A stretch of 64,000 bases of DNA, taken from positions 14,619-78,618 of the forward strand of contig JAQTQG010000003.1 of the NCBI GenBank assembly GCA_028712375.1, written 5' to 3'. Within the stretch, counting starts at the first letter, position 1. Each line of letters starts with the position of its first letter. The notes under the pieces were generated by a model. That model was not told where the DNA came from, ran no database searches, and saw only the letters and a list, made by a program, of their open reading frames with translations. The position numbers and the translations under genes were made by a program. This stretch comes from Candidatus Omnitrophota bacterium. Lineage in GTDB: Bacteria; Omnitrophota; Gorgyraeia; Gygaellales; Profunditerraquicolaceae. Positions 1,510 to 22,298 of this stretch are shown in pieces.

Positions 1510-1736
1510 ATGATCGCTAAGACTTATAGTTTTGGCCTGCTGGGCCTGGAGGCTTACCCGGTAGAGATTGAAATTGATGTAGCAAGCGGACTGCCGGCGA
1601 TTAACCTGGTAGGGCTGGCCGATACCGCAATTAAAGAAAGTAAAGAGAGAGTGCGCTCGGCCATTAAAAATTCAGGGTTCCAATGGCCTGCCCAAAGAAT
1701 AACGGTAAACCTGGCCCCTTCCGATATCAAGAAAGA
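1510..1736 (+). pseudogene. comM: comM/yifB 5' fragment (aa 1-75), truncated by insertion
   Basis: Translation MIAKTYSFGLLGLEAYPVEIEIDVASGLPAINLVGLADTAIKESKERVRSAIKNSGFQWPAQRITVNLAPSDIKK matches the ComM/YifB N-terminal (Lon-protease-like) domain. After codon 75 the frame runs into unrelated sequence. The continuation is at 20963. Confidence 0.75.
1723..1736. repeat. left junction direct repeat GATATCAAGAAAGA (attL core candidate)
   Basis: A 14-bp sequence repeated with one mismatch at 20963-20976. It lies exactly at the comM break point. Confidence 0.6.
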
Positions 1737-1774
1737 CGATACCAAAAAACCAGGATTCCCCCCCTACTTTTCCT

Positions 1775-3262
1775 CTAAAAGTTATACTCAATCTCTATCT
1801 TTCCCCCTATAAATACCCTGATAACCTTAATTAAGTCGTTAATCAAATCTCTTTTTTCCTGATCATTAGCCTCAGCCCAGGTAGACTTAAACTCCTTATA
1901 GAATCTACTTTGGCTCTTAAAATCATCCTTTTTTGTTTGTTCTCGCTCAAGTTTAATTCTAGCCTCTAAGATAGAGCATCCTATGCTATCTATTTCTTGT
2001 TTTATCCTCTCCAGCCTACTTAGGACGTCCTCATCATCCGATTTTTCAAGGGCGTTAAGTATCCTTTCTTTTGCCCTTTTTTTACCCTGAAGAGAATCTT
2101 CCTTATTTTTTATCTCTCCTCTAAGTCGGGTAATTTCTATCTGGGAATTTATTTTAAGATGTTTGAATAAATAAGATTCATCTGAAGATAATCCTTCCAC
2201 GTGTTTGAAAATCTCTTCCAGCACCTTATTTTCTAGAAAATCTTTACGATAATTTTTTCTATGCCTACACTTTCCGGGGTTCGTTCTTCTAAGAGAACAG
2301 GCATAATAATACAGATTTCCCCCGATCTTCTTCTGGCTCTTAGTTTGCTTCTGAACTAATTGGTGTCCACACTCACCGCACTGGGCAACATCCCTGATAA
2401 AGAATCCGGGAGCAATAAGTCCAACCTGAGCATGATTCTGGAAGTTCTGTTTTAAAATCTCCTGGGCCTTGGTAAAAACATCTTCACTAATTATCTCTGG
2501 ATGTTTTTTCTCATAGGTTTTTCCCTTTACCATCATCCTGCCTGTATATTTAACATTCTTTAGTATCCGTCTAATCTGCGTGTCTCTTATCAAAAAAGGT
2601 AAAGCGATCTTCTGATTTATCAATTCTTTTACTACTCGCTTATTACTCTTAAACCTGTTATACAGCTCGAAAATTAATCTTACTTTCTCGGCTTCTTCTT
2701 CAACTATAACAAAATGCTTGTTCTCTGATCTATAACCAAATGGAGGATACCCGCCGAAGTTTGTCCCATCCCGAGCAACCTTAATATATCTAGCAGTTAG
2801 GTTACGTTCTCTTATAGTATTTAATTCCATCTCGGCAAAGATCGCAGTTATCTGCATTACAAGTTTCCCCATATCACTAGAGGTATCAAAGGGCTGAGTA
2901 GCTGAAATGAAGACAACTTTGTTCTGCTCAAACTCTTTAAACAAGGTTAGCGTATCAAGAGCAGACCTTGAAATTCTATCAAGACGCCAAACCAATAGGG
3001 CTTTAACCTGGCCTTTGGCGATATCAGCCCTCAGCCTTTGTAATTCAGGCCTTTCGGTGTCGCTACCGCTTAGTTTATCAATATAGAAATCGGAATCTGT
3101 AAGAGGAAGATACCCGTGCAGCTTAGCGCTGTTTAAAATACCTTCCTTCTGCATATCAAGCCCAACCCTATTTACTTCGGCCTGCTCAAGCGTTGAAACT
3201 CGGAGATACGCTTTCGGTTTTATCTGTTCTGTGTTCATTAGTTTTATTTTGCCTTCTTTCAA
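1775..3262 (-). CDS. large serine recombinase (resolvase/invertase N-domain + recombinase domain + zinc ribbon)
   Basis: 495 aa. N-terminus AYLRVSTLEQ...GLDMQ is resolvase-type with the catalytic Ser. Central recombinase domain, a CGECGH...YYYACS zinc-ribbon and a C-terminal coiled coil. Stop codon lies 38 bp from the junction repeat. Confidence 0.85.
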   Translation of the reverse strand: MKEGKIKLMNTEQIKPKAYLRVSTLEQAEVNRVGLDMQKEGILNSAKLHGYLPLTDSDFYIDKLSGSDTERPELQRLRADIAKGQVKALLVWRLDRISRSALDTLTLFKEFEQNKVVFISATQPFDTSSDMGKLVMQITAIFAEMELNTIRERNLTARYIKVARDGTNFGGYPPFGYRSENKHFVIVEEEAEKVRLIFELYNRFKSNKRVVKELINQKIALPFLIRDTQIRRILKNVKYTGRMMVKGKTYEKKHPEIISEDVFTKAQEILKQNFQNHAQVGLIAPGFFIRDVAQCGECGHQLVQKQTKSQKKIGGNLYYYACSLRRTNPGKCRHRKNYRKDFLENKVLEEIFKHVEGLSSDESYLFKHLKINSQIEITRLRGEIKNKEDSLQGKKRAKERILNALEKSDDEDVLSRLERIKQEIDSIGCSILEARIKLEREQTKKDDFKSQSRFYKEFKSTWAEANDQEKRDLINDLIKVIRVFIGGKIEIEYNF

Positions 3263-3397
3263 CTATCTTTTTTACTATCTCCCAAAAATGATCTTCGTTT
3301 TCGTTCTTTACTAAATTAGATTTCATTTACTTTTCTCCTTGCTCTATACTTTGTCCTAAACATTGTCTTTTTTACAGTGTAAGATCAAAAAAAATCC

Positions 3398-3913
3398 TTA
3401 CTTGTTCTGGCTGATCAAAGTCACCATCTGTATATTCTCGAAATTCTTTCTACTTTCTATCTCAAGTATTTTATCCGCTTTATCTATCCGGTCATCAATT
3501 TCGTTGCAAATATCCAAATACCGGGTGACATTATCCAAAAGCTGTTGATGATCAGCCTTATGGTCTTCTTTTACAACGCCTAATCGTAGGACCAGATCAG
3601 CATATGACACTTTTCCAGTCGGTATCTCATGACCTTTTAAGACAATAGGAGAATCTATGATCTGTTTTCTTAAATTAAGAAAGTCCTTTATCCTCTTAAG
3701 CGACATCCCTATCATCTTCATAGTAAGGACTTGTTTTATTGTGTCGACTACCTCTCGGCCATATACCCGGTATCTATTCTCCATCTTTTCCGGTGAGAAC
3801 AATCCATAATCCTCGTATTTTCTGAGCTGCTCGCTGGATATATCAAAGCCTTGACGCTGCAACTCTTCGGCTAATTCCGTTCTTAAAAGTCCATCTACTG
3901 GTGATTTATCCAT
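3398..3913 (-). CDS. MerR-family-like HTH protein (possible regulator / directionality factor)
   Basis: 171 aa. The pattern HTH...RYRVYGREVVDTIKQVL..MKMIGMSLKRIKDFL resembles the MerR DNA-binding domain plus dimerisation helix. Sits adjacent to the recombinase. Confidence 0.45.
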   Translation of the reverse strand: MDKSPVDGLLRTELAEELQRQGFDISSEQLRKYEDYGLFSPEKMENRYRVYGREVVDTIKQVLTMKMIGMSLKRIKDFLNLRKQIIDSPIVLKGHEIPTGKVSYADLVLRLGVVKEDHKADHQQLLDNVTRYLDICNEIDDRIDKADKILEIESRKNFENIQMVTLISQNK

Positions 3914-4061: not shown

Positions 4062-4370
4062 TTACGTCTTTTTAAGTGGCGTACCATCTGAATCTACCAT
4101 CCTATTTGAAACAATTAGAATTAGATCGATTAACCACCACATGCCAAGACCTCCAAGCGTGCATAATTTCAATATCCCTAACCCTACGTAACCAAGATAG
4201 AATCTATCAAATCCCCAATATCCGAGAAAAAGAGAAAGCAATAACGCCACTAACCAACTTTTACCTTCTTTCTGTAGCCCACTAATTGATCTTCCAGATA
4301 CTGCACAACCGCACTTAACGCAAATAACGGCTTCATTGTCTATCTCTGCACCACATTTTTGACAAAACAT
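4062..4370 (-). CDS. zinc-ribbon + TM2-domain membrane protein
   Basis: N-terminal CxxC...CxxC ribbon (MFCQKCG...CVKCG). The C-terminal [33 protein letters not shown] fits the TM2 domain consensus. Confidence 0.55.
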
Positions 4371-4392
4371 TAAAGCCTCCTTTATCTTAAAT

Positions 4393-4764
4393 TTATCTTC
4401 CAGTTATAGAATTAATTATAGTCATAGGATGGACAAACCACAGAATAAGAAGTATTGTGAAAATTGTCCCCATAATTACGCCAAACATAGCCCTACCCAT
4501 TCCGTGTTTTTCAGGGTTTCTCTTAATGTCCCTTATCGCGAGAATACCAAATAGCAAAGCAAACGGAGCTGGAATAAAAAGAATGGAAAAGAAAGCTAAA
4601 TAGCCCGCTGTAATAGCATATCCTGATCTTCCCACTGGCAATAAAGCACGAACAAGGGCATCCTGTCCTGGATCCTTGTTTATTTTTGCTCCTGTAGGAA
4701 CTCCGCACTTCATACAAACAACAGCATCGTCTTTAATTTCTCCACCGCATTTTCTACAAAACAT
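4393..4764 (-). CDS. zinc-ribbon membrane protein (paralog of the preceding gene, DUF4190-like)
   Basis: Same MFC+KCG...C.KCG ribbon start as 4062-4370, followed by three predicted TM helices. Confidence 0.5.
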
Positions 4765-4835
4765 TTTGCTCCTCCCTTTTATTTCCGAAACCAGGTCTTT
4801 TATTCCTTAGTATTTTAGCTATATGTAGATAGCTC

Positions 4836-5228: not shown

Positions 5229-5279
5229 ATATTATCACCTAATTTAATAGGTGTAAATAGAAAAGACCGACAATAGTAG

Positions 5280-5531
5280 GTGTTCAAAGAGAGGATTTTA
5301 TTGGAAAATGTTAATATGGAAAACATCAATATCAGGTTCGGTAAACATTTGAGGGAATTAAGGAAGGAACGGGAACTGACACAAGAAGAGCTTGCTGAGA
5401 TTTCGGGGCTTGACTATAAATATATCCAACGTCTGGAAGGTAAAAAGCCTTCTTCTCCTACCCTAAATTCATTAGAAAAGATTGCTAAAGCCTTTAATAT
5501 AAGACTCTCAAAATTACTTAAATTTAATTAA
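5280..5531 (+). CDS. XRE-family HTH transcriptional regulator
   Basis: 83 aa. LRELRKERELTQEELAEISGLDYKYIQRLEGKKPSSPTLNSLEKIAKAF is a canonical Cro/C1-type HTH. Divergent from the upstream cargo genes. Confidence 0.7.
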   Translation: MFKERILLENVNMENINIRFGKHLRELRKERELTQEELAEISGLDYKYIQRLEGKKPSSPTLNSLEKIAKAFNIRLSKLLKFN

Positions 5532-6193
5532 TACCAACCATCAAGAATACACATTAGAATGCTTAATTCGTTAAGAACGGCCCGAAACTTCTTGTCCTTC
5601 TTGTAGTGCTTGTTATAAGATTCTTCACCTTGGACAACAAGATATTTCTTCTTTTTTGAATCCCAATCGAATTTAATCCTTGTGCCTTCGGCCTTAGTCG
5701 TAACAGTACGGAGTACTCCATCCTTCTTCATTCTCTTAGCATATTCTTCCTCTGGAATGCCGTCTTTACGAGCATGCTTGCCAATAAACTTCTCATGGAT
5801 CTCACGCACATAATCAATCCACTCTTGCTCTTCACTAGGCGGCTTATAACCTTCTGGCAGAATATCACTCATCTTCTTTGCATTACTCACATAACGAGAA
5901 TAAGCCGTAACATCACCAGTGCCGATCCAACGGTCAATGTCACTCTTGCGGAATATGGCTCTACCATCAGCTATACGTGAGAACGGCATCTTTTCCTGAC
6001 GCACCCAACCATCTATAGTCGTTTGTGGCACGCAAAGATATTCTGCTACTTGGACCTTACTTAAATGAATCCTTTTTGTTTTTTTGAATGTTTCGGATTC
6101 TTGGAGGGATTTTTGATCTAAAAACTCACCACAATGACGACACTTAATAGCTTCTTCTTGGATTTCTTCAGCACAAAATGGACATTTCTTCAT
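5528..6193 (-). CDS. zinc-ribbon + excisionase/Xis-type HTH (HTH_17-like) domain protein
   Basis: Starts MKKCPFCAEEI...CRHCGEF. The segment LSKVQVAEYLCVPQTTIDGWVRQEKMPFSRIADGRAIFRKSDIDRWI matches the MerR/Xis excisionase DNA-binding domain. C-terminal half unknown. Confidence 0.5.
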   Translation of the reverse strand: MKKCPFCAEEIQEEAIKCRHCGEFLDQKSLQESETFKKTKRIHLSKVQVAEYLCVPQTTIDGWVRQEKMPFSRIADGRAIFRKSDIDRWIGTGDVTAYSRYVSNAKKMSDILPEGYKPPSEEQEWIDYVREIHEKFIGKHARKDGIPEEEYAKRMKKDGVLRTVTTKAEGTRIKFDWDSKKKKYLVVQGEESYNKHYKKDKKFRAVLNELSILMCILDGWY

Positions 6194-7558: not shown

Positions 7559-8317
7559 TTACCCTACTTTAACTTCTTTCAGTATTTTCTGGTAAATACA
7601 GAAATCACAATCAGCACTATATTCAGGAACTACGGGACCCACCAAGCATTTATACATCTCAATAATCTTAGCCTCAATCCAAGAATCATTTCCGTCATAA
7701 GGTATTATTTTGATATCGAAATCAAGCTTTGCACTAAAGGTATCCCTGTCAGTAAGCCCATTGCAATACACAAAATAACCGGTTGGAGATACATTAAAAC
7801 CGTTTTTTCTGAATAACCACTGGTATATTTCCATCTGCCTCTTATAAGATATCTGCCAATCAGCATCTATGCTTACTTCTTCTTCCTTTGATGTGCTCTT
7901 GTAATCTACGATAAATAGCTGGCCATCCGATGAGGCCCAAACGTCATCTATCCCCCCTGTAAGTAAAAGATTTGTCGGTATGTGCAGATATTCAATACCA
8001 CCATGAAGAGCATCCCGCCAGATATTCAGCTTATCGTGCTTAAAAGGAACCGCCTTGATCCCATTTGCTTCCATAAGAGGATGGCTTATCTGTTTATTCC
8101 GATAGACATCGAATTCTTTCTTCAGTAACTTGTCTACTGCTGAATTTAGTGTAAAAGGGAACCCGGGTGGTTGCCCTACGCCTAATCTTCTGTCTAAATA
8201 GAAGCAACGTGGGCAATTTATGAATAGTTCAATTTTGGAGCGGCTTAGTTTAAATGGAATTTTACTATGCGGATCGAATAAATTCTTAGTTTTTCTACCA
8301 GTATAGTATTTAGACAT
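7559..8317 (-). CDS. Cas4/RecB-like PD-(D/E)xK nuclease with Fe-S cysteines
   Basis: 252 aa. Motifs GGIDDVW...LFIVDYKST (D...D/ExK) and QMEIYQW (QxxxY). An N-terminal CPRC and a C-terminal C...CDFC fit the 4-Cys cluster arrangement of Cas4/AddB-type nucleases. Confidence 0.6.
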   Translation of the reverse strand: MSKYYTGRKTKNLFDPHSKIPFKLSRSKIELFINCPRCFYLDRRLGVGQPPGFPFTLNSAVDKLLKKEFDVYRNKQISHPLMEANGIKAVPFKHDKLNIWRDALHGGIEYLHIPTNLLLTGGIDDVWASSDGQLFIVDYKSTSKEEEVSIDADWQISYKRQMEIYQWLFRKNGFNVSPTGYFVYCNGLTDRDTFSAKLDFDIKIIPYDGNDSWIEAKIIEMYKCLVGPVVPEYSADCDFCIYQKILKEVKVG

Positions 8318-8461
8318 AGACCTACAGACTATTATTCCCGATTCTTCTTTGGCTATCTGCCGCCGTAGAACTTAAACTAGGCTTGGATTTAGGTTATCTA
8401 TCCATCAGCTTAAAAGCTTCCCGCTTTCAACAATGCTGATGTAGTGAAAAAACTATAAATC

Positions 8462-10351
8462 TTAAGAAATAGTTACAACCGCTTCTGCTTCTGACCAAGT
8501 GTTTATCAAATCCAATATTTTTTGAATTTGAATCGGATAATCTTCTAATGAAAGATCTTCATATTTCATAAAAGCAGCTCCGATCTTGCCATGTTTTTCT
8601 ACTTGATTTGTAGCTATGCCTATAATGTTTTCAAGTTCTGGTGTAATTTTGATGATCTTCCCAATATTTTTATCCAAAGAACCATCAATAAAATCGTTTT
8701 CTTTAAACATTCTGAGCTCAGATTCTTCTTTGTCTGTTTTATTAGGTTTATTTTCTGGAAAGTTAATAGGGTCTATATCATGGATAGCAACGTAAGGAAC
8801 TTTGAACTTATTAAGTACTCGCATAAATATATGTATATTGGTTTTTCCGCCACATTCAACTACGCATATGTTTTTAGCAACGAAGTCATATTTTTTATCT
8901 TTTACAGTAAATTTTGTTGCCCAGAAAGGAACTATAAATTTTTCGGTATCACCTTCAACCAATACTACTTTCTTAGAGAAAAACATTTCACTACGCGATA
9001 AGTCAAAAAGGCTTAAATAACGGAAAACTTTTTTTAACCTATTGTTTTCCTGTGTGGTTTCAGCAGCAAATATATCTCCAACAAATTGAAAGGTATTTGT
9101 TGGACCTTTTTCCTCACGCCCAACGATCACGATATTCTTGTATTCAAACATATCTACAAAAAAGTTAGAATGTGTACAGGCCAATATTTGATCAGTAGTT
9201 GCGATATTCCTTAAAACTTCAATCATCTTTCTTTGGCCATTAGGATGTAAATATAGTTCTGGTTCCTCAATTGCAAGTATAAAATTTTTCACCAAGGCTT
9301 CCGGTTGATCTTCTTCTACAATTACAGTACTTACTGTTTTAGCATAAGCTCTTATATAAGCTAAAATTAGTGCACGTTGAAGACCATGTCCCTTAGAATC
9401 AATCGAAGTAGGCAAAGCGTCATCTAAAGTAATATTCACATCTTTAAATAAATCAACAAGTTCGGGAGTGACGATTTCAATACCAACCTTTGTTCCTGGC
9501 ATACTTTCGCTTATTATGCCTGTAATAGTGCTTTCGAAATCTTTTATTTCCTGTAATCGGTCTGAGTCATCTCCAGTACCTGATTTATTTAAATATTTCT
9601 TCAACCCTTCGAGCTGGTTCTTAACCTCTTCAAATTTTGGATTCTTTAAAACTATCCTATTTGTTAAATCGGTTACTAACTTCCCTAATACAGTTTGCTG
9701 TGTAGTCTTAGATTCATCACATGCATCTTTTACAGCAGGAACCAAATAAAATTTAGGCAACAAATCAGCAAATACTTCTTTGAGGCCTGCAGGATTCTTT
9801 ATCCAATCTGGATCACCAAATTCCACTTTTCCGTCCTCTATACACTTCATAACCCCTTCTTTATATGAAGCCTGGGTCACGGTTCCCTTATCAGTTTTAA
9901 AATAGTCTGGTAAATTTTTATCTTTCACAATTTTTGCAATATCCCCTTTATATTCATCAAATCTTGATAGATCAAAATGGAGCTCGCGAGGCTTAGCTTG
10001 CCATCCATAAAACGTCGTTTCATATTTTTCACTCTGATTATTATACTCTACGACCTTTTTCACTCGAATTGCATGGTCATAGATCCAATGCTTAAGATAC
10101 TTTTGTTTTTCATCATACTCAGTTAATCTATCAAATGTCAAAATAATAGTGATTGGTTCATTATTCTTTTTGAAATAAAAATATTCCTCGTTTATCCCCT
10201 TAACCGAATCTTGATAGAATAATTCTATTGCTCGAAGTATATTGGATTTACCTGCATTATTCTCTCCAATAAACATAGCCAATGAATCTATTTCAATTTC
10301 TATGCTGTCTATGGACTTAAATTTGTGTATTTCGACTTTACGTAACTTCAT
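8462..10351 (-). CDS. OLD-family ATP-dependent endonuclease (ABC ATPase + TOPRIM)
   Basis: 629 aa. N-terminus MKLRKVEIHKFKSIDS...FIGENNAGKSNILRAIELF is the OLD/AAA_15 Walker A. The C-terminus VVLVEGDTEKFIVPF...VVECGGKTN...VAIHDID is a TOPRIM domain with E, DxD-like and G motifs. Confidence 0.8.
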   Translation of the reverse strand: MKLRKVEIHKFKSIDSIEIEIDSLAMFIGENNAGKSNILRAIELFYQDSVKGINEEYFYFKKNNEPITIILTFDRLTEYDEKQKYLKHWIYDHAIRVKKVVEYNNQSEKYETTFYGWQAKPRELHFDLSRFDEYKGDIAKIVKDKNLPDYFKTDKGTVTQASYKEGVMKCIEDGKVEFGDPDWIKNPAGLKEVFADLLPKFYLVPAVKDACDESKTTQQTVLGKLVTDLTNRIVLKNPKFEEVKNQLEGLKKYLNKSGTGDDSDRLQEIKDFESTITGIISESMPGTKVGIEIVTPELVDLFKDVNITLDDALPTSIDSKGHGLQRALILAYIRAYAKTVSTVIVEEDQPEALVKNFILAIEEPELYLHPNGQRKMIEVLRNIATTDQILACTHSNFFVDMFEYKNIVIVGREEKGPTNTFQFVGDIFAAETTQENNRLKKVFRYLSLFDLSRSEMFFSKKVVLVEGDTEKFIVPFWATKFTVKDKKYDFVAKNICVVECGGKTNIHIFMRVLNKFKVPYVAIHDIDPINFPENKPNKTDKEESELRMFKENDFIDGSLDKNIGKIIKITPELENIIGIATNQVEKHGKIGAAFMKYEDLSLEDYPIQIQKILDLINTWSEAEAVVTIS

Positions 10352-10708: not shown

Positions 10709-12220
10709 CTATTCTGGAGCTCCCATAATAAAACCTGTGGTAAGCCCTTTTTCTTTAAACCAACTTTTTAATATGCCCTTACTTCCAGCAATTGCCGTAT
10801 CAATTTCTGAATCCGTTGGGGCACTCCACATTTGCCAGTTAAATAATCTTGCTAAACATGCTTTTATTTTTGAGTAGTCGCTATCCACTAAATCCCTATA
10901 AAATGGCTTAGCTTTCTCATCTCCATCATGAATATCTAATTTCGCACATATTGCGTCTCGCAATAGTTCTGACCAGGCCATAATTGATTTTGAAGAAAAT
11001 ATCCTACTGAGTTTACGCTGATTTTGATCACTAGGCGCGGCTGCAGGATTCCAATGTGAAAGCGCAAGTTCAAAAATCATATTCATTAAAGCAATAACAT
11101 TCTTAAACTCTGATTCTCTCCTATATTTTTCTGAAAACATATCATCATCAAGAGGCTCGGTATAAAGAAAACAAGCAAGGATTGACTTAGAGAGCATATC
11201 CACAGTAAGCGGTTGTTCATTGGAGCTCCTATTACTTGTTGAAACGAGTGGTTTGAGTTTATTAGACTCATCTTCAAGAATAGAATTATATAAGTAACTA
11301 CGGAAACGCTTGTTTCGCTCGCCCCGCGTAAGAGATATGTCTTTCTGCTCTAGAAATGACAAAAAACCACTTTCATTTTTTTTCTCAATATCTTCTCTAT
11401 TTTTATACTCTTCAAAATCTTTCCCAAATTGATTCCCTAATTTAAGAATTAATACTGACGAAAAAAATCTTGTTTGGGCGAATTTATCATGTGCTGATAT
11501 ATTAGCTTGATTAAGCATCCTCAAGTCGGGATCAAGATAGATCTTGCATTCAAATGTCTTTCTCCCATTCCACAATATCGCAGCTGCCTTGTGTTGACCA
11601 TCAAAAAGCAATATCCTATTATTTGAAACACGTCCTATTGAAGGTTGCAAAACTGGATAAATCTGGAAATGACGAAACATTTCAAATACTTTATCAAAAA
11701 TCAAATAACGTGGTTGTAGGCCCAAATGTTCATTATCATCATCATCGCTGTTAAGAATTGATATGGGTAAATTACCATAAAAATATTTCCAACCGGTTCG
11801 CGGACAGGTTTGGATATTAAACTGAGATGAAAAGGAGTGGTGTTGTAAAGTAACTGTTTTATCTTGGACATTAATAGCAACCGCTTCTCCAAAAGACTCA
11901 ATATCACCTGCCTTTTTTAAGTGCGTAATTAGATTACGCAATGTTAATCTATCGCCTTCTTCAAAAAATGATTCAAGTCGAAGTTTTATACGAAAATCCC
12001 CTAGAGGCAACATTCCCTTCGCCTTATTATGGTATTCGCACATAGGTGCAATATTATCAAGTTCTGATTGCCCATCTCGAGCATAAGCCCAAATATGGTC
12101 AAAATGAACCCTCTCCCCTTCCGGGATTGCATGCCCATTGGCAAAGCAAATACGCCCATGTCGATTTAAAATTATTTTCTTTTCATCATCATTGATTTGC
12201 CTTTTTAGAGTAATTGCCAT
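10709..12220 (-). CDS. HNH endonuclease fused to DGQHR (DndB/ParB-like) domain protein
   Basis: N-terminus C..NGH......HFDHI.......N...MCEYHN is an HNH motif. The central LLFDGQHKAAAIL is the DGQHR signature of the DndB branch of ParB/Srx-fold proteins. C-terminal ~200 aa unknown. Confidence 0.65.
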   Translation of the reverse strand: MAITLKRQINDDEKKIILNRHGRICFANGHAIPEGERVHFDHIWAYARDGQSELDNIAPMCEYHNKAKGMLPLGDFRIKLRLESFFEEGDRLTLRNLITHLKKAGDIESFGEAVAINVQDKTVTLQHHSFSSQFNIQTCPRTGWKYFYGNLPISILNSDDDDNEHLGLQPRYLIFDKVFEMFRHFQIYPVLQPSIGRVSNNRILLFDGQHKAAAILWNGRKTFECKIYLDPDLRMLNQANISAHDKFAQTRFFSSVLILKLGNQFGKDFEEYKNREDIEKKNESGFLSFLEQKDISLTRGERNKRFRSYLYNSILEDESNKLKPLVSTSNRSSNEQPLTVDMLSKSILACFLYTEPLDDDMFSEKYRRESEFKNVIALMNMIFELALSHWNPAAAPSDQNQRKLSRIFSSKSIMAWSELLRDAICAKLDIHDGDEKAKPFYRDLVDSDYSKIKACLARLFNWQMWSAPTDSEIDTAIAGSKGILKSWFKEKGLTTGFIMGAPE

Positions 12221-13139: not shown

Positions 13140-13988
13140 ATGAAGTTTGCCGATGTAAATAAGACCATAATAAAGCTGTGCAAAGATAACAGTTTGGATT
13201 TCTTAGCTGAATGCGAAGCTATCCAATCTGAAGTTGATGCCTGCTCTCTACCTGAAATTCTCGACCATTTAGATAATGCAGGTATCATACCCGAATGTTT
13301 TGATCACGATTCTACGGAAGAAAAGTTGTTCGCAAAGTATTGTGACTCTTTATTAGCTCGTGGGTTACGAGAAATAGGATTAAACGCATATACAATACCA
13401 GAACGCAGTGATGCGGCTGATGTTCAAGGGAAGGGTAGCAATTACACTATTGTTGGAGATGCTAAAGCGTTTCGTCTTAGCAGAACAGCAAAAAACCAAA
13501 AAGATTTTAAGGTCGAGGCTCTTGATAAATGGAGAAATGGATCCGATTTCGCTGTATTAGTAAGCCCTCTTTACCAGTACCCAAATACAAATAGCCAGAT
13601 TTACTCACAAGCAATAAGGTATAATGTTACCCTATTATCTTATACCCACCTAGCTTTCCTAATAAGAAATAGAAATAATATAAAGAATGGCTCTCTTAGG
13701 GGATTATGGGAAATCGGAAAAAAGCTCTCTATTGGTAAAAGCGCCAAATCATACTGGGGATTAATTGACGCTAAAATGCTAGAAATTACCGGGAAGGATA
13801 AAAAGGATTGGGATAGCGCTATAGAAACAGAATACAAATGCTTAGTTCAGAGAGCTAAGGACGAGATTAAGTATTGGGAAGATGAAAAAGCAAAGATATT
13901 AAAATTGTCTCACGATGCGGCAATACAAGAACTAATTAAGGCTAGGAAAATAACAGAAAAGGTCGGAGTTATTAAGCAGTTTATATAG
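13140..13988 (+). CDS. putative Type II restriction endonuclease (PD-(D/E)xK candidate)
   Basis: 282 aa, convergent with and 8 bp from the methyltransferase gene. ...FDHD...ERSDAADVQ...YTIVGDAKAF is compatible with a D...(D/E)xK active site. Inference only. Confidence 0.4.
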   Translation: MKFADVNKTIIKLCKDNSLDFLAECEAIQSEVDACSLPEILDHLDNAGIIPECFDHDSTEEKLFAKYCDSLLARGLREIGLNAYTIPERSDAADVQGKGSNYTIVGDAKAFRLSRTAKNQKDFKVEALDKWRNGSDFAVLVSPLYQYPNTNSQIYSQAIRYNVTLLSYTHLAFLIRNRNNIKNGSLRGLWEIGKKLSIGKSAKSYWGLIDAKMLEITGKDKKDWDSAIETEYKCLVQRAKDEIKYWEDEKAKILKLSHDAAIQELIKARKITEKVGVIKQFI

Positions 13989-13995: not shown

Positions 13996-16200
13996 TTAAA
14001 GAGATTTTCTTTTTGTGATTTTGAAGCCTGAATAGAGTGTTGAGATGTAGTCTGAAATACTCATAATCATATCTGCATCACATCCACCCCCAGTGATGTT
14101 CTTATAGTTGACCAGTAACCCAATTCCCTGTGCGAATATTGCCAACCCAATGTCTTTCTCGCTCCATCCCGCTTCTTTCAACACATTACCATAATCAGAT
14201 ACGTAAGAAGATACCTTAGCAATTATTTCGGGGAAAGATATTGATGATTTCTCTTCCATTGTTTTATGACAGACGAAGGTAATGCAAGTATCTATTGCTT
14301 CTGATGTCATGCCGCGAGGTCTTGCTTTTCTTTCTATACTAAGTGGTTGCACGCTTGTGATTATAAAATTAGTGTCTCTAAACGCCCGAATAATTGCGTC
14401 CCATCCGCCTAGTGAGCTATGGCTATAAATAAACGATAGGACGCCGTCATATTTCAAAACTCTCTCAGCTTCTTTTATCGCCTTGCCTAATTCTAAGCAA
14501 TACTTATCGTGAGCTTCAAGGGCCGATTGACTACGAAATGCTGAAGCAACTAATTCGGAACCAAAGCTAGTGTCTTGTTTGTTAAATAAATCCGGATCAA
14601 CATTTTTTAATAAAATTCTTTTCCACGCATAAAAGAAATCCGCTAATATGCTGTAATAAATATTATCATAGTATGGGGGATCTGTTATAATTGCATCAAA
14701 ATAATTGCTCTTAAATGGGAGGTTTTGGGCAATTCCACAGTTTACTTCCGGTTTATATGGAAATTTTTCGATGGAGCTAATGCCTGAAATGATACGGTCG
14801 AGCTTATCCCAAAGATTAGCTGGGCCATTCATTATGGGGTCTATTTCGCCATAATCCCAAAGCATGGGAACGCCTGGACCGCAAAAAGCTCGCCCCATCT
14901 GTTCATTTTGCGAAATCCACATAGATAAACGACAATTCCAATCCACAAGTTGATCAATTAAACTCGCCAATACAGAAATAGCAAAATCCGCCAACTCCTT
15001 TGAATTCTGCTCCTTCAATAACCGATATTCATCTTTCAGACACTTTATCAAAGACAGTAGAACCACCCTCTGCCTTTTATTGACAAAATCACTATGAGTT
15101 TCTATGCCGTAAACTGAGGGGTTCACAATGCCGGACCATTTGGGCAATTTCGTATTTGGAAGACTGCTTTCTAAAGATTTTAATAAATCATTTTCAAGAT
15201 GAGAGATCTTAACGGCTGAGGGAATCAGCAAATCGTTGTTTTCTATAAGCAAAAACTCTTTCCCGGATTTTTCTTTCCGCTTAACAAAAGCAATTAGCTC
15301 ATCTCGAGTGTTGCTAATATCAACTTTTTCAACTATATGAGAGCATTTTGGGCATTTAGCAGACCCATTTCGACCTTCCCAATTTGAGTTATGTTCATAT
15401 TTGTCATCCACTTCCTTAATCCCAATATGCTGTCGATCCTTGGAATTATTTATAATAATTGCTATTCGCTTATTTTTCTTGCGTGACAGCCAGGGTCTTT
15501 TTATTAAATAATATACATATTTACATTTTGGGCATTTTAATGAATACGTCCAGAAATACACTACAGGTGGTCTTTGTTTCGTCTCGGATATCTCACCCTG
15601 CTTACTTCTTGATACCCCTCCCTTCCTCAATGGAAACAATTCATTTGTTGCTTCTTCTAAAGACTTTAAAACACGAATGCCAGATTTCCTTACAATATCT
15701 TCGGCACTTCTTAAATCAACTTTCTGCGAGTATTCAAGATTTGCTTTTTGTATAAAAACAGACAATTCATTCGCATCAATAGAGTATGCTTTGGCACCTA
15801 TGTTGGCTATTTCTAATGGTATTGTTCCTCCACCACCAAACATATCTAGGGCCTTTGGAGGAACTACGTATTGTTCTTTAATAATAGCTCGGGCTTTATC
15901 TATGGCACTTTTGTTTGCATCCCCCGCTAACTCAACCATTATTTCATACATTTTAGGTGTACTTATTTTACATAGAGAAGCAAACGCAAGTATCCTCATA
16001 GCAGAATGAGGTCTTCGAGCCCACCAAACGTGGAGTGTATGCGACGTTTCTCCACTTCGGTATCGTTCCGCAAGACCAGCTATTGAGGCTTCGTAATGTA
16101 AAAGTCCACTATCTATCAAACGATGTTCCGAAGTGTTTGGGATCAGAGCAATTTCAGGACTTGATTGGGTTTTATTTTGACACATACTACTTATTGGCAT
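13996..16200 (-). CDS. DNA methyltransferase, N6-adenine/N4-cytosine type, alpha-class with DUF1156-like N-terminus and internal zinc ribbons
   Basis: 734 aa. N-terminal LHVWWARRP motif (DUF1156-like). Motif I DMFGGGGT. Internal CPKCKY...CPKCSH ribbons (putative TRD). Motif IV ITDPPYYDN. The order I-TRD-IV indicates alpha class. Confidence 0.75.
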   Translation of the reverse strand: MPISSMCQNKTQSSPEIALIPNTSEHRLIDSGLLHYEASIAGLAERYRSGETSHTLHVWWARRPHSAMRILAFASLCKISTPKMYEIMVELAGDANKSAIDKARAIIKEQYVVPPKALDMFGGGGTIPLEIANIGAKAYSIDANELSVFIQKANLEYSQKVDLRSAEDIVRKSGIRVLKSLEEATNELFPLRKGGVSRSKQGEISETKQRPPVVYFWTYSLKCPKCKYVYYLIKRPWLSRKKNKRIAIIINNSKDRQHIGIKEVDDKYEHNSNWEGRNGSAKCPKCSHIVEKVDISNTRDELIAFVKRKEKSGKEFLLIENNDLLIPSAVKISHLENDLLKSLESSLPNTKLPKWSGIVNPSVYGIETHSDFVNKRQRVVLLSLIKCLKDEYRLLKEQNSKELADFAISVLASLIDQLVDWNCRLSMWISQNEQMGRAFCGPGVPMLWDYGEIDPIMNGPANLWDKLDRIISGISSIEKFPYKPEVNCGIAQNLPFKSNYFDAIITDPPYYDNIYYSILADFFYAWKRILLKNVDPDLFNKQDTSFGSELVASAFRSQSALEAHDKYCLELGKAIKEAERVLKYDGVLSFIYSHSSLGGWDAIIRAFRDTNFIITSVQPLSIERKARPRGMTSEAIDTCITFVCHKTMEEKSSISFPEIIAKVSSYVSDYGNVLKEAGWSEKDIGLAIFAQGIGLLVNYKNITGGGCDADMIMSISDYISTLYSGFKITKRKSL

Positions 16201-16519: not shown

Positions 16520-17134
16520 TTAAACACTAAGTAGCTCGGCACACTCCGCCAGATCTTCCTTCGTTACGCCCGTGTAGATCTGCGTCGTAGAAACGAACTT
16601 GTGTCCCAAAAACTCCTGCACCTTCCGGATGTTGCCACACTTTCGCATTAACTCCGTCCCAACCGTGTGCCTCAGACAGTGTGGTGAATATCTTCCTTCC
16701 AAGCCACTTTCACTAACCCATTTATTAAGGTTTAACTGCACTGCCCTCTGGGTAATTCTTTTGTTGTTCCTTGATAAAAATAAGGGTTCGCTCAAGGAGA
16801 AGCCTTCATCCTTTGCCTTTCTCTGCCTAATGTATTTATCTATGTGGGCTCTAATATCCTTGTTTAATGGTATTTGCCTAATCCTGTCGCCCTTGCCTTT
16901 TATCTCCAACACTTCCTTTGACGAATAGCCGTTGTGCACATCCTTGGCATTAAGGTTGATCGTTTCACTAAGGCGTAATCCAGTATTAAGCATAAGGTCA
17001 AACATACAATAATCACGCCAGGCTTTCCTGCTGTCGGCAAGTGTCTTTAAGAATTGTTTCTTTTGTTCAGAAGTCAGATATCTTATCGTGTTCCTCTTGG
17101 CCATTTCACACCTCTTCGTTAATATACTGCTCAA
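16520..17134 (-). CDS. tyrosine site-specific recombinase, catalytic domain only (XerD-like)
   Basis: 204 aa. GLRLSE (Arg I), HCLRHT (H-x-x-R), LGH and TQIYTGV (Tyr nucleophile). Lacks an N-terminal core-binding domain. Confidence 0.8.
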   Translation of the reverse strand: MSSILTKRCEMAKRNTIRYLTSEQKKQFLKTLADSRKAWRDYCMFDLMLNTGLRLSETINLNAKDVHNGYSSKEVLEIKGKGDRIRQIPLNKDIRAHIDKYIRQRKAKDEGFSLSEPLFLSRNNKRITQRAVQLNLNKWVSESGLEGRYSPHCLRHTVGTELMRKCGNIRKVQEFLGHKFVSTTQIYTGVTKEDLAECAELLSV

Positions 17135-17576: not shown

Positions 17577-19037
17577 CTATGAATTAGCAAAAAAACCTAT
17601 CTTGGTTTTATTGTCCTTAACAAAGATTCCGTCCTGTTCTAGACTCGCTCCAAACAAAAGGTCATTCATTGTAATAATATTCCTTTTCTCTTGAACCAGC
17701 CGTCGCAGGGCGTGGAAGACAGCATTCTTGATGTAGCCACCACTAAACTGAAATTGTCTGGCCAGAACAGCAAAATCAACACCTTGGGCAAGAGTTACCT
17801 TGCTTGGAATATGCGATCGCCAAATTTCTTTGCGTATCTTCTCATCAGGCAAATCAAATTTAACCTTTAAAGTAACTCTGCGTTCAAGTGCAGGATCAAG
17901 CAAATTATCCATGTTCGAAGTTAAGATTACCACTCCTTCAAACCGTTCAATTTCCTGTAGCATAATATTAACAAACCTAATATCGTGTTCTTGGGCTGCG
18001 AAGTTGCGGTTATATAAAATAGAATCCGCCTCGTCAATACAGATAACAACATTATTTTGCTTTGCTGACTTAAAAATAGAAGATATTTGTTTATCGGTTT
18101 CACCAAACCAACGTGAATTTATTTTGGGAAATTCAACAACAAGCAACTTCTTCTTAAGATGTTTTGCTATTGCCTCAGATAACATCGATTTTCCCGTGCC
18201 GGGCGGACCGTAAAAGAGGAAAACCAATCCTTTGCCATTTTTAATTGTTTCTTCTACACCAAGATCTTCAAGTCCTTTATCCTGCAACCCGGATAATAAG
18301 AAACTGACGTTTTTCTTCACATCGAGAGATAGCTTAACATCTTCAAGAGAATATGCCGGATCCTTTAAAAAACCAACCTCTTCGCAAGGGTGTAAATCTT
18401 TTTTATTTTCTGCCCTTCCAGGTCTAGATTCTTTATACTCCCCACTTATCATCCTAGAAAAAACGTCCAACAAAGACGAACTCATCCCGAAACTGACTAC
18501 GGCCGAGTTGTGGTTGTTTCGATAATATGGGTACAAAATAGAATATTTTAAAAGATTGGCATTTCGGTTAAAATAACGAGACAACCCCATTCTCCCGATT
18601 ACAGAATCATTTAAGTCAAAGATCCTAAGGAGCAGATCCCTTGAACAGATATTCTCTTTTAGGTGCAAGAACTCCAAATAAAGGTAATATAGGAGTATTT
18701 GCTTTTCAAAGATATCCAAACCGTATAGCGAGGCAGTTTTTTCTAACGCAAACTTACTGCCCTTAGACATGGAATCCTGTACCCTTTGCCAAAACAAAAC
18801 TTCTTTTGTCTTTATTGTTGAGTCCAATTCTGATACATTCTTGCGGAATGCCTCTACATCATCCTTAGATTTCTTAATAAGAATAATTCTTTTGTTTTGG
18901 TAAAGTTCGCAGATCTTGAAATATTCTTCGATGTATTCTTGGTCACCTGAAAGAAAATTATTTTCCGGCATTACCTTTTCTCCTTTCTTTCTGCACAAAC
19001 TTATCAAAATCCTCAACTGTCTTTTTGAGCCTTTCAT
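17577..19037 (-). CDS. classic-clade AAA ATPase with unknown ~260-aa N-terminal domain
   Basis: Walker A GPPGTGKSML, Walker B VVICIDEADSI and second region of homology ILTSNMDNLLDPALERRV (CDC48/FtsH-like AAA). The true start may be the internal Met at ~18971. Confidence 0.8.
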   Translation of the reverse strand: MKGSKRQLRILISLCRKKGEKVMPENNFLSGDQEYIEEYFKICELYQNKRIILIKKSKDDVEAFRKNVSELDSTIKTKEVLFWQRVQDSMSKGSKFALEKTASLYGLDIFEKQILLYYLYLEFLHLKENICSRDLLLRIFDLNDSVIGRMGLSRYFNRNANLLKYSILYPYYRNNHNSAVVSFGMSSSLLDVFSRMISGEYKESRPGRAENKKDLHPCEEVGFLKDPAYSLEDVKLSLDVKKNVSFLLSGLQDKGLEDLGVEETIKNGKGLVFLFYGPPGTGKSMLSEAIAKHLKKKLLVVEFPKINSRWFGETDKQISSIFKSAKQNNVVICIDEADSILYNRNFAAQEHDIRFVNIMLQEIERFEGVVILTSNMDNLLDPALERRVTLKVKFDLPDEKIRKEIWRSHIPSKVTLAQGVDFAVLARQFQFSGGYIKNAVFHALRRLVQEKRNIITMNDLLFGASLEQDGIFVKDNKTKIGFFANS

Positions 19038-19738: not shown

Positions 19739-20098
19739 TTACCATTCAATAATAATCTTCTTATCTAACATCTGCACTTTTCCGATAGCCTCCATTTTGA
19801 TTAGGCGTTTTCCCTTGTTTTCTGACACCTGGTTGAGTGATCTATCTTTTGACATAGCAAAACACCTTTTTGACTCATTCCCCTCGGAAAATCGTGTTGA
19901 GTTGGTCAAAACGCCTTCCAGAATTGACCTGACATATACTCTGCTAGGACCAATTCCTTTTCTAGCAGGATTGTGCCCCATTCTGAATGGGAACAAATAA
20001 CAACCCGTCGTGTTATCACAGAAGCGAACATCTTTAGGCCTACCTGCACAAATAAGACAGTGTTTTCGGATGGCTTGTAACGGCGTAAGGTGTTTCAT
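19739..20098 (-). CDS. small hypothetical protein (119 aa) with CLIC...C...C motif
   Basis: ORF only. Weak. Confidence 0.25.
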   Translation of the reverse strand: MKHLTPLQAIRKHCLICAGRPKDVRFCDNTTGCYLFPFRMGHNPARKGIGPSRVYVRSILEGVLTNSTRFSEGNESKRCFAMSKDRSLNQVSENKGKRLIKMEAIGKVQMLDKKIIIEW

Positions 20099-20293
20099 TT
20101 ATAACCCCCTTTCGTGCCCACTCTTCTGGCCTACGACCGGAATCAACTTTACTGAGAGTAGTTCAAATTCACTTAAGTTGTCTCCTCTGTCGTTTTTCAA
20201 TATTACTTTGGCTGTTGAGGAACTCCGCCGAAGGCGGATAAATGTATAACTACTCTTTTGTACAATACTCTTCTGTAAAGTATTCTATTGTGT

Positions 20294-20385
20294 CCCCCTA
20301 CTTAGGGGGTAGCGAATAACCTATATAGGAGACAGTAAATAACCCACTTAGGGGGTAGCAATAACCCATATAGGGGTAGCAAATA
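20294..20385. repeat. iteron-like direct repeats with embedded 7-bp palindrome
   Basis: The unit ACTTAGGGGGTAGC(G)AATAACC(T/C)ATATAGG occurs at ~20299-20329 and ~20346-20375, with a third partial TAGGGGTAGCAAATAG at ~20371-20385. The first copy begins with CCCCCTA-CT-TAGGGGG, a perfect inverted repeat. Confidence 0.5.
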
Positions 20386-20402
20386 GTATAACTAAATCCA
20401 TA

Positions 20403-20831
20403 TTAACTTGGCTTCACCCATATCATCCTGCCCTCTATGTACGGGTAATCTTTGCCGTTCTTCACTTCAGATCCCTCCTTAATATCTATACGAATCTTCC
20501 AGCTTTTCCGCTTGCCTTTGGTTACTGTTATCACCCACTTTCCAGCGTCCTGCTCAATCCCAATTTTTCTTCCATCCCGGGTTATCATTTTTTTCTCCAA
20601 TAGCTTTTTCTTTGTTCTAGGTACGTGAGATAATGGTATACCAGTGCTATTTTCGATTTGGCTGTTGGAAATCCAGTCCAAATCCTTTTGGTACCCTAAG
20701 GTCTTCATAACAATAAACCACCACAAGGCGTGCTCGTACGGACTAAGGTAACGAGCAATCCAAACATAACCCATTCTCAACAAACGCCAAGGCAGTTTTA
20801 TGAAACGTACATTATCTTTTAGATCTGCCAT
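20403..20831 (-). CDS. putative replication initiator / replisome-organizer-like winged-helix protein
   Basis: 142 aa. N-terminal FIKLPWRLL... and a GIPLSHVPRTKKKLLEKKMI winged-helix-like segment resemble phage/plasmid RepA_N / replisome-organizer N domains. Directly adjacent to the iterons. Confidence 0.4.
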   Translation of the reverse strand: MADLKDNVRFIKLPWRLLRMGYVWIARYLSPYEHALWWFIVMKTLGYQKDLDWISNSQIENSTGIPLSHVPRTKKKLLEKKMITRDGRKIGIEQDAGKWVITVTKGKRKSWKIRIDIKEGSEVKNGKDYPYIEGRMIWVKPS

Positions 20832-20954
20832 TTATTCAGCTCCTTTCCTGGTCATTTCCCCAAGGGAAAATACCACTTTTCTTTCTTTTTTATTGGTAAT
20901 TTTTAATTGCTATAACTTTAAGATAATTAAAGAGATGAGATATATCCTTGCGGA

Positions 20955-22298
20955 ATGCACTCTGATATCAAAAAAGAGGGCGCTTGTTTTGATTTAGCCA
21001 TTGCCCTGGGCATTCTGGCGGCAACCGGGCAGATCGGCAAAGAGCGCCTTCAAAACTACTCTTTTCTGGGAGAATTATCCCTAGACGGCCAATTGCGGCC
21101 GGTGCATGGCGTTCTGGCGATAAGTTTAACTATCTCTAAATTCCCGGTTAAGAGCCTTGTTCTTCCCGAAAAGAACGCTCAGGAAGCAGCGGTTATACAA
21201 GAAATTTCTGCCTGGCCGCTCAAAAACTTAAAAGAAGTGGTGCAATTTTTAGCTGATCCCGGAAGCCGAAGCCCATTTAAATTAGATATTAACCACGTTT
21301 TTAAAGGCGGTGGGAATTATACTTTGGATTTCTCCGAAGTTAAAGGCCAATATTTTGCAAAAAGAGCGCTGGAAGTGGCGGTATCCGGGGGGCACAATAT
21401 TATTATGCTCGGTCCGCCCGGCAGCGGGAAAACTATGTTAGCTAAAAGGATTCCCACTATTATGCCTAACCTTTCCTTAGAAGAAGCTCTGGAAATCACC
21501 AAAATCCATTCCGTAGCCGGGACGCTATTAAATGATAATTTTATCAGAACCCGGCCCTTTCGCTGCCCGCATCACAGTATTTCAGATACCGCCTTAATCG
21601 GAGGAGGCAGCGTGCCTAAACCCGGAGAGATCAGCCTGTCTCATTACGGCGTGCTCTTTCTGGATGAACTCCCGGAATTTAACCGCAAGGCCCTGGAAGC
21701 ATTAAGACAGCCGCTGGAAGACAACCTGATTTGTATCAGCCGCGTAAAAAGAACCCTGGTATTCCCGGCTTGTTTTATTTTAGCCGCCGCGCTTAACCCT
21801 TGTCCGTGCGGCAATTATTTTAACCCGCACAAACCATGCCATTGCAACCCGACAAAAATCAAAAATTACCTGGGGAAAATTTCCGGGCCGCTGCTGGATA
21901 GAATCGACCTGCACATTGAAGTCCCGCAGGTAAAACACCGGGAATTATCAGACGCGCGGGAAGCAGAATCATCGGCAGCCATCCGGCAACGCGTAGAAAA
22001 CGCCCGCGCAATTCAACAAAAAAGATTCTCCGCCATAGGCAAATCCGGCTCCACAAGCATATTTTGTAACGCCCAAATGACCAATAGGCTCATTAAAGAA
22101 TATTGTGTTTTAGATGCCGAGGCTAGTAACTTATTAAATATGGCAATAACCGAATTGGCCCTATCGGCAAGGGCTTATGATAAAATACTTAAGGTGAGCC
22201 GGACGATTAGTGACCTGGCAGGCAGCCAAAACATTAAATCCGAACATGTTGCCGAGGCAATTCAATACCGCTCTTTAGACCGGCAGCTCTCCGGATAA
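20955..22298 (+). CDS. comM: comM/yifB 3' portion (Mg-chelatase-like AAA+ ATPase, aa ~71-end)
   Basis: SDIKKEGACFDLAIALGILAA continues the N-fragment exactly. Walker A GPPGSGKTMLAKR, Walker B LFLDELPEF, and a C-terminal Mg-chelatase ChlI-like domain. The ATG at 20955 is fortuitous and created by the insertion. Confidence 0.8.
   Translation: MHSDIKKEGACFDLAIALGILAATGQIGKERLQNYSFLGELSLDGQLRPVHGVLAISLTISKFPVKSLVLPEKNAQEAAVIQEISAWPLKNLKEVVQFLADPGSRSPFKLDINHVFKGGGNYTLDFSEVKGQYFAKRALEVAVSGGHNIIMLGPPGSGKTMLAKRIPTIMPNLSLEEALEITKIHSVAGTLLNDNFIRTRPFRCPHHSISDTALIGGGSVPKPGEISLSHYGVLFLDELPEFNRKALEALRQPLEDNLICISRVKRTLVFPACFILAAALNPCPCGNYFNPHKPCHCNPTKIKNYLGKISGPLLDRIDLHIEVPQVKHRELSDAREAESSAAIRQRVENARAIQQKRFSAIGKSGSTSIFCNAQMTNRLIKEYCVLDAEASNLLNMAITELALSARAYDKILKVSRTISDLAGSQNIKSEHVAEAIQYRSLDRQLSG
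20963..20976. repeat. right junction direct repeat GATATCAAAAAAGA (attR core candidate)
   Basis: Matches 1723-1736 at 13 of 14 positions. Lies at the point where the comM reading frame resumes. Confidence 0.6.

Follow-up and report, generated by a model that had tools for sequence, protein, structure and literature searches.

Large serine recombinases (LSRs) exchange DNA strands at a 2-bp overlap, and the excision performed by these serine integrases needs a recombination directionality factor. Their attP and attB sites are short and have little in common besides the non-palindromic 2-bp crossover, the integrase gene being a neighbour of attP. Among the gene-splitting elements excised by LSRs are skin of Bacillus subtilis (SpoIVCA, in sigK), SPbeta (SprA, in spsM), the fdxN element of Anabaena (XisF) and phi10403S/A118 of Listeria in comK, and a regulated, reversible or developmental excision has been experimentally shown in the skin, SPbeta, fdxN and comK systems. 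The present work is concerned with an integrative element (about 1731-20969) that interrupts comM, a competence-helicase gene of the YifB family, in a 64,000-nucleotide stretch of a Candidatus Omnitrophota genome (assembly GCA_028712375.1, contig JAQTQG010000003.1, positions 14,619 to 78,618), the whole of which is called the window and to which all coordinates refer. With a probability of about 0.88, this element entered comM via conservative site-specific recombination catalysed by its own LSR.

The homologues of Mg-chelatase and ATP-dependent protease are the target of 12.4% of the predicted site-specific LSRs and represent their commonest target (Durrant et al. 2022, Nat Biotechnol, PMC10083194), with the competence genes being enriched among the LSR targets as well (PMC10083194). 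In the Wolbachia prophage WO of the sr1WO group, an LSR integrates into the magnesium chelatase gene (PMC9203015). The comM gene of Acinetobacter baumannii is interrupted by the Tn7-like AbaR islands and other defence-carrying elements, and it has been proposed that the loss of ComM lowers the transformation-mediated removal of mobile elements (PMC11472951). The window element fits into this pattern; in an earlier sequence-only reading of the window, comM had likewise been described as a recurrent integration hotspot in other bacteria.

One comM gene in two pieces

The comM gene is found in two pieces, 1510-1736 (5') and 20964-22298 (3'), with an insert of approximately 19.2 kb between them.

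1510-1736, plus strand: comM 5' fragment, residues 1-75 (Pfam ChlI profile positions 1-58, E = 3e-23)
20964-22298, plus strand: comM 3' fragment, residue 72 to the end (Pfam ChlI positions 52-121, then Mg_chelatase and Mg_chelatase_C)

The ComM homology of the 75-aa fragment, whose absence would have spoken against a split gene, is present (Pfam ChlI 1-58), and the overlap of the two pieces is limited to the duplicated SDIKK codons, as follows from the ChlI positions 1-58 and 52-121. The open reading frame (ORF) at the 5' side (100 aa, 1510-1812) reads on into the element and receives a 25-aa element-encoded tail. The in silico join of 1510-1736 and 20978-22298 gives a full-length ComM of 515 aa, which is matched by the family model TIGR00368 (YifB family) in one stretch, at the profile positions 2-499 of 499, with 640.5 bits at a cutoff of 362.4, and which matches the solved ComM structure 8rxd (E = 2e-130). 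The joined protein thereby contains the ChlI N-domain, the AAA+ Mg_chelatase domain and the C-terminal domain of the ComM/YifB family at full length, and the expectation that a precise excision would restore the gene holds in silico end to end. There are no stops or frameshifts over the 1,545 bp of the comM pieces, the LSR gene and both attachment (att) sites being likewise clean. The G+C content is 0.32-0.39 in the insert vs. 0.42-0.48 in the flanks.

The in-frame ATG-CAC-TCT ahead of the 3' fragment (20955-20963) is supplied by the P arm of the element, and because of this ATG at 20955 a 447-aa ORF (20955-22298) is annotated at NCBI as a YifB family protein (P0089). A search upstream of the 3' fragment found no promoter or terminator, so that nothing supports the expression of this ORF. 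The comM gene belongs to the few plus-strand genes of the window, where nearly all ORFs of at least 200 aa are located on the minus strand, and the element genes are all on the minus strand except the endonuclease gene.

The search for an uninterrupted comM, which took one genome per species, revealed a single intact copy in Candidatus Omnitrophica UBA6253 (L001), with 76% ComM identity, and another one in a closer relative, L222 (GCA_026387315.1), with 83% ComM identity and an equal gene arrangement. The comM 5' fragment of the window aligns with the residues 1-76 of the intact ComM in both L001 and L222, and the upstream neighbours are the same as in the window, namely, a DUF212 gene and a coiled-coil gene. 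When the window minus the insert was compared by blastn with a relative, the alignment passed straight across the junction. The nearest ComM homologues were of 506-538 aa in 116 cases of 120, the other four being the window's own 447-aa product and the proteins of 463, 411 and 381 aa; the 381-aa homologue (P0207), although on a long contig, is cut by the contig end, and those of 463 and 411 aa, found on contigs of 3.8 and 1.9 kb, were left out of the locus look-ups. In the search with the comM 3' fragment, the homologues listed were all near-full-length ComM proteins. Since comM is uninterrupted in the relatives with the same neighbours, the two pieces in the window are one gene split by insertion; the insertion into comM is real and confirmed, and the reading of the pieces as two separate genes fails.

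Probable crossover point and integrase

The comparison of the two ends of the element requires the following sites.

1723-1736, no strand: attL copy of the 14-bp junction repeat, GATATCAAGAAAGA (sequence read)
20964-20977, no strand: attR copy of the 14-bp junction repeat, GATATCAAAAAAGA (sequence read)
1729-1730 (attL) and 20970-20971 (attR), no strand: predicted crossover dinucleotide AA (seven-junction comparison and two empty sites)
1731-1774, no strand: P' arm, element-side half-site of attL (the interval separating the crossover from the stop codon of the LSR)
20935-20969, no strand: P arm, element-side half-site of attR (contains the ATG at 20955)

The two junction repeats are identical at 13 of 14 positions; when the 150-bp zones around the junctions were shuffled 200 times, this level was reached once. 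The duplication of the SDIKK-encoding DNA with a single mismatch had been noticed in the sequence-only reading, which placed the first copy correctly at 1723-1736 and the second copy one base too low (20963-20976 instead of 20964-20977). Its proposal of a site-specific recombination through a short identical crossover segment stands in the first part and has to be narrowed in the second. In the alignment of seven attL junctions, the positions to the left of AA follow the host-type codon variation (ATC, ATT, CTA, ATA, GTA), and those to the right of AA are conserved along the lineage of the LSR and the element; the four closest elements have the P' arm GAAAGACGATACC[A/G]AAAA[A/G]C[A/C]AGGATT in common, and a GATT/ATTC motif occurs 24 nt from AA in 6/7 attL junctions. 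The empty sites of L001 and L222 both read AAAAAAGA (also given as GAYATCAAAAAAGARGG), with A, not G, directly after AA. Therefore, the only mismatched base of the repeat, G at 1731, is element-derived, and the strand exchange took place at or to the left of AA. Together with the host variation on the left and the element conservation on the right, this points to the 2-bp AA after ATC, starting the first Lys codon (1729-1730/20970-20971), as the most likely crossover rather than the whole 14-bp repeat, the remainder of which would reflect a half-site similarity of attP and attB near the centre. The junctions reconstructed synthetically on this basis are AACCTGGCCCCTTCCGATATCAAAAAAGAGGGCGCTTGTTTTG for attB and CCTTGCGGAATGCACTCTGATATCAAGAAAGACGATACCAAAAAACCAGGATTCC for attP.

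The insertion target is the ComM motif NLAP(A/S)DIKKEG, with the site at codon 74; among 79 ComM sequences from many phyla, only one other 10-residue stretch of the first 120 residues is more highly conserved than this motif. The GATATC palindrome, to which attention had been drawn as a part of the core, is incidental, as it consists of the Asp-Ile codons and is replaced at the same place in other hosts by GATATT, GACCTA, GGCATA and AATGTA. No tRNA or Rfam features were found at the junctions, the sole RNA genes being three tRNAs far off, and the scan of IMG/VR with the exact P'-arm pattern gave 0 matches. A 20-nt stretch inside the AAA+ ATPase gene (18832-18851) is similar to the outer P arm of attR (20939-20958) at 18 of 20 positions (GATACATTCTTGCGGAATGC vs. 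GATATATCCTTGCGGAATGC); the similarity ends before the core and could be either chance or a vestigial half-site.

The gene adjoining attL encodes an LSR, and its start is overlapped by a small ORF.

1775-3238, minus strand: large serine recombinase, 487 aa from ATG, with the ORF extending to 3262 from TTG (Pfam Resolvase, Recombinase, Zn_ribbon_recom)
3186-3326, minus strand: conserved 46-aa ORF overlapping the LSR start (seven-copy alignment, translation checked)

The LSR stop codon lies 38 bp past the end of the attL repeat. The protein has the resolvase-type catalytic domain with the nucleophilic serine (111 bits) and the recombinase and zinc-ribbon domains (PF07508, 54.5 bits, and PF13408, 35.7 bits, both above the cutoffs), that is, the composition characteristic of an LSR. 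The catalytic motif YLRVSTLEQ (RVSTxxQ; R13/S15 in the P0001 numbering) is invariant in nine family members, and the zinc-ribbon residues Cys287, Cys290, Cys314 and Cys324 are invariant across the family. The best match among solved structures is the catalytic domain of the TP901-1 integrase (E = 2e-17), and the best NCBIfam match is XisF, with 134 bits, far under the cutoff of 375. The LSR is identical to P0001, a 'recombinase family protein' of a Candidatus Omnitrophica metagenome-assembled genome at NCBI. No integrase in the GenBank phage records exceeds 30% identity to the clade of this LSR, within which the identity is 42-100%. The database search gave only eight close homologues (42-80% identity); seven of them were examined for context, P0005 (56%) being left out.

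L090, 80% identity: convergent comM 5' fragment ending at residue 75-77
L081, 79% identity: convergent comM 5' fragment ending at residue 75-77, with one additional gene between the LSR and comM
L083, 70% identity: convergent comM 5' fragment ending at residue 75-77
L089, 50% identity: convergent comM 5' fragment ending at residue 75-77
L088, 48% identity: convergent comM 5' fragment ending at residue 75-77
L085, 42% identity: convergent comM 5' fragment ending at residue 75-77
L086 (P0007), 49% identity: free 14.6-kb circular phage-like contig

The host flank with the DUF212, LysM-YkuD and AccA genes is common to most of the comM-adjacent LSR contigs. At the six comM-inserted relatives, no tyrosine recombinase was called in the recovered element sequence, whose extent upstream of the LSR varies from <1 kb to 10 kb, and tblastn with the other element ORFs of at least 70 aa gave 0 matches in these relatives besides the LSR and the small overlapping ORF. 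As only the LSR and the small ORF are common to the relatives, the LSR module travels as a unit on unrelated elements. The repeated linkage of the LSR to comM, without a tyrosine recombinase and without shared cargo, argues for the LSR as the integrase of the comM site, and the element's own LSR at the attL end is favoured in this role. Thus, the question of which recombinase was involved, left undecided between a serine and a tyrosine enzyme in the sequence-only reading, is answered in favour of the LSR through the comparison with the six comM-inserted relatives.

Every family member, the free circular element among them, has a copy of the small ORF (32-50 aa) that overlaps the LSR start (L082:1002-1142, L083:2860-2976, L085:9901-10050, L086:8909-9061, L088:4381-4524, L089:3371-3469). 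These copies share the motif FW(E/K)I(V/Y)KKIVERRxNK. The 46-aa ORF of the window could not be credibly assigned to any Pfam family and is a candidate for a partner of the LSR, a directionality factor or a leader for translational coupling. In the related elements, the LSR module is closely preceded on its upstream side by a small serine resolvase of 166-192 aa (L083:2291-2863, L085:9013-9591, L088:3641-4168, L089:2850-3359, L081:9108-9608), and a MerR-family gene (3398-3913) is found at this place in the window.

Virion or packaging genes occur in relatives with the LSR module: L086 has a large terminase and L081 a small one, and a gene resembling those for internal virion proteins is present in both L085 and L086. 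The L086 contig of 14,770 bp, with a 141-bp terminal overlap, corresponds to a circle of about 14.6 kb; this element was assembled in several samples (also as L087, L093 and L170), is listed in IMG/VR, and combines an LSR of the window family with a 545-aa tyrosine integrase, a small resolvase and a large terminase. Since these phage-like relatives and the island in the window have the same LSR module, one integration module serves unrelated elements.

Cargo of the element and rival explanations

The genes between the two att sites were identified with the Pfam scans of every ORF of at least 100 aa and four smaller ones, and the PHROGs scans of ten of them.

3398-3913, minus strand: MerR-family helix-turn-helix (HTH) regulator (Pfam MerR_1, E = 3e-9)
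4062-4764, minus strand: two small zinc-ribbon membrane proteins, with a TM2 domain and DUF4190, respectively (profile matches)
5528-6193, minus strand: zinc-ribbon and HTH_17 (excisionase-type) protein (Pfam HTH_17; PHROG 66 'excisionase and transcriptional regulator', E = 4e-8)
7559-8317, minus strand: PD-(D/E)XK, Cas4-like nuclease (Pfam PDDEXK_1; PADLOC Cas4 models, E = 4e-8)
8462-10351, minus strand: OLD-family ATPase with TOPRIM nuclease (Pfam AAA_15, OLD-like_TOPRIM; PADLOC Old, 295 bits)
10709-12220, minus strand: 503-aa protein with an N-terminal HNH motif (weak Pfam HNH match; PHROG HNH endonuclease families)
13140-13988, plus strand: HindIII-family type II restriction endonuclease (Pfam RE_HindIII, E = 1e-84; PADLOC REase_II)
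13996-16200, minus strand: DUF1156-type DNA methyltransferase, paired with the endonuclease (PADLOC MTase_II, 655 bits; Pfam DUF1156, N6_N4_Mtase)
16520-17134, minus strand: tyrosine recombinase, 204 aa, catalytic domain only (Pfam Phage_integrase, residues 19-192)
17577-19037, minus strand: AAA+ ATPase, IetA/IteA-like but under the family cutoff (profile matches)
20303-20385, no strand: iteron-like array, 3.7 copies of a 22-23-bp unit, TAGGGGGTAGCAAATAACCCATA (Tandem Repeats Finder score 96)
20403-20831, minus strand: replication-initiator O-like protein, 142 aa (Pfam Phage_rep_O, E = 1.5e-14; PHROG replication initiation O-like, E = 3e-16)

As judged from these profile matches, the element is a defence island with anti-phage cargo, comprising the OLD nuclease, the Cas4-like nuclease and the restriction-modification pair of the HindIII family. 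The partner of the OLD-family nuclease at 7559-10351 is the Cas4-like PD-(D/E)XK nuclease, not a UvrD-type helicase as in Gabija, and that of the HindIII-family endonuclease is a 734-aa methyltransferase of the DUF1156 type, not a small M.HindIII-like enzyme. The AAGCTT hexamer occurs at 35 sites in the window (5 in the element), above the median for 6-bp palindromes and thus not depleted, which says nothing on the specificity of the enzyme. The 503-aa HNH protein was matched by neither NCBIfam nor PADLOC. At their 5' ends, the TM2 and DUF4190 genes share a 63-nt direct repeat of 75% identity (4309-4371 and 4703-4765), which suggests a local duplication of the zinc-ribbon module. The iteron-like array sits directly 3' of the Rep-O-like gene and is a probable replication origin, so that the element could replicate once excised.

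The phage-like functions are limited to the Rep-O-like gene and the excisionase-type HTH protein; the Pfam and PHROGs scans gave, in the element, none of the capsid, tail, portal, terminase or lysin families that would be expected of a prophage. Relaxase, coupling protein and type IV secretion genes, the marks of an integrative conjugative or mobilizable element, were absent from the Pfam matches, as were transposase genes.

The 14-bp direct repeats at the junctions are of a size typical for tyrosine integrases, and the 204-aa protein at 16520-17134 has a clear Phage_integrase catalytic domain (E = 7e-39), which raises the alternative that this internal enzyme integrated the element, with the repeat as its overlap or core. 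However, the gene is located 3.8 kb from attR and 14.8 kb from attL, and its product corresponds only to the C-terminal half of XerC/XerD (profile positions 105-284 of 295), having no core- or arm-binding domain; the mismatch inside the repeat also disfavours a tyrosine-recombinase core. The six elements at the identical comM position share the LSR, with no tyrosine recombinase called in their recovered parts (<1 kb to 10 kb), and tblastn matched the gene only in L086, a free element outside comM. An integration by this enzyme is consequently held to be highly improbable. The inverted repeats that would make the tyrosine recombinase and methyltransferase region an invertible segment were looked for, with nothing convincing found. 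A transposon of the Tn7/AbaR type, with the 14-bp repeat as a target-site duplication, would agree with comM as the classic target of such elements in Acinetobacter (PMC11472951) and with the short direct repeat at the junctions, but it is scarcely credible here: no DDE transposase, Tns/Tni transposase or AAA+ regulator module was seen in the Pfam scans, no terminal inverted repeats of the element were found, and the repeat is 14 bp long and imperfect, compared to the 5-bp target duplication of the Tn7-like elements, so that the TnsABC/TniABQ genes, the inverted repeats and the 5-bp duplication of a Tn7-like comM transposon are all missing. The element-side sequence beside the repeat is, moreover, conserved with the LSR lineage, and the interruption in A. 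baumannii concerns the MgCh domain (PMC11472951), while here it is the ChlI N-terminal domain.

A chimeric contig, with the junctions created by assembly or binning, might be suspected, as the source is a metagenome-assembled genome and the G+C content of the insert is lower; yet both junctions are in register with one reading frame and share the 13/14 repeat, the attL junction is reproduced in a separate read-set assembly (Logan SRR22315508), and the same architecture is present in six independent contigs from other samples, which leaves next to no room for an artefact. The remaining alternative, that the element is a decayed prophage remnant with the excision lost and comM permanently inactivated, concerns the present-day activity and not the origin of the insertion, and so overlaps with integration by the LSR. 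It would be in line with the virion and packaging genes of the relatives with the LSR module, of which the window element has none, with a directionality factor represented by candidates only, and with the circular or empty form not having been found. On the other hand, neither stops nor frameshifts interrupt the LSR, the att sites or the comM pieces, the genes shared with the phage-like relatives are limited to the LSR and the overlapping small ORF, and the element has its own Rep-O-like gene and iterons. By these features, it looks like an intact element of its own kind and not like a phage reduced by deletion, and the decay is considered unlikely.

Several points weigh against the integration by the element's own LSR, besides the possibility of an assembly error mentioned above. 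The empty site of the same strain was not found, the nearest intact comM among the 120 nearest homologues being only 83% identical, and neither attP nor the circular form of the element was detected. No attR junctions were recovered from the relatives, the contigs being too short or the element exceeding the 10-kb flank, so that only the window shows the P arm. In the reconstructed attP, the dyad symmetry is greatest at AA, but at 11/24 it is weak, the best of approximately 50 centres tried and not significant alone, and in attB the best centre is the GG further 3' (11/24), not AA. In the free circular relative L086, the 85-bp spacer after the LSR has no convincing comM-like core; a degenerate comM-site pattern had its single match in another part of the contig, and 8/200 shuffles scored as well. 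The only candidates for the directionality factor are the 46-aa ORF (3186-3326) and the HTH_17 protein (5528-6193).

The proposal of a site-specific integration into comM is nevertheless upheld by the split gene, the 13/14 repeat, the reading frame restored in silico, the empty sites and the LSR linkage, and the process can be envisaged as follows. The LSR dimers would bind attP on the circular element and attB over the ComM codons NLAP(S/A)DIKKEG, both duplexes would be cut at the 2-bp overlap, most likely the AA of the first Lys codon, and the rotation and religation of the LSR subunits would give attL (1723-1736) and attR (20964-20977), with the 13/14 repeat reflecting the attP mimicry of attB around the AA dinucleotide. 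While integrated, the element inactivates ComM, with a presumable effect on transformation; the excision by the LSR together with a directionality factor would rebuild the intact 515-codon comM, and the excised element could replicate via the Rep-O-like initiator and the iterons. A more far-reaching and rather improbable interpretation is that of a virion-less, self-replicating, satellite-like defence island, which shares the integration module with the phage-like elements, competes or hitch-hikes at the same att site and makes its excision a reversible ComM switch. Such a switch, if true, would also control the transformation-mediated removal of mobile elements and would be an Omnitrophota counterpart of the comK switch in Listeria and the sigK switch in B. 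subtilis.

Comparison with known systems

As the comM-type genes are already the commonest LSR target, the current understanding is unchanged by the window element, and what is new here is limited to the host phylum, the LSR clade and the sharing of the LSR between the phage-like elements and a defence island. It thus adds a case from a little-studied, largely uncultivated phylum to the mobile elements disabling comM, and the pattern supports the idea that the elements target comM to escape deletion by transformation. The occurrence of the same integration module on phage-like elements and on a defence island illustrates the module swapping between the element types. The LSR clade is small and divergent; its attB is well delimited within a highly conserved coding motif and its attP can be reconstructed, and such a pair could also be tried as an orthogonal integrase tool.

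The Wolbachia magnesium chelatase gene is, to judge by its name, probably a comM/yifB orthologue. The sr1WO group, likened here by its description, is similar to the window element in having the gene pieces on both sides of the element and in the logic by which attB and attP were reconstructed (PMC9203015); it is, however, a complete tailed prophage, and the window element is without virion genes. The LSR elements surveyed by Durrant et al. (PMC10083194) correspond to it in the Resolvase, Recombinase and zinc-ribbon composition of the LSR, in the integration inside a comM-type coding sequence and in the convergence of divergent LSRs on one conserved site, the match being known at the gene level; the window element differs from them in the LSR clade, at most 30% identical to the GenBank phage integrases, and in its Omnitrophota host. 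With AbaR/AbGRI, it shares the interruption of comM by mobile elements often equipped with defence systems, but AbaR is Tn7-like, has the Tni/Tns genes and occupies a site in the MgCh domain, while the window element depends on an LSR and is found in the N-terminal ChlI domain. The window LSR is not an orthologue of SpoIVCA, SprA, XisF or the LSR of the Listeria comK phages; the likeness to the skin, SPbeta, fdxN and comK systems consists in an LSR element that splits a gene and whose precise excision rebuilds it, here by sequence only.

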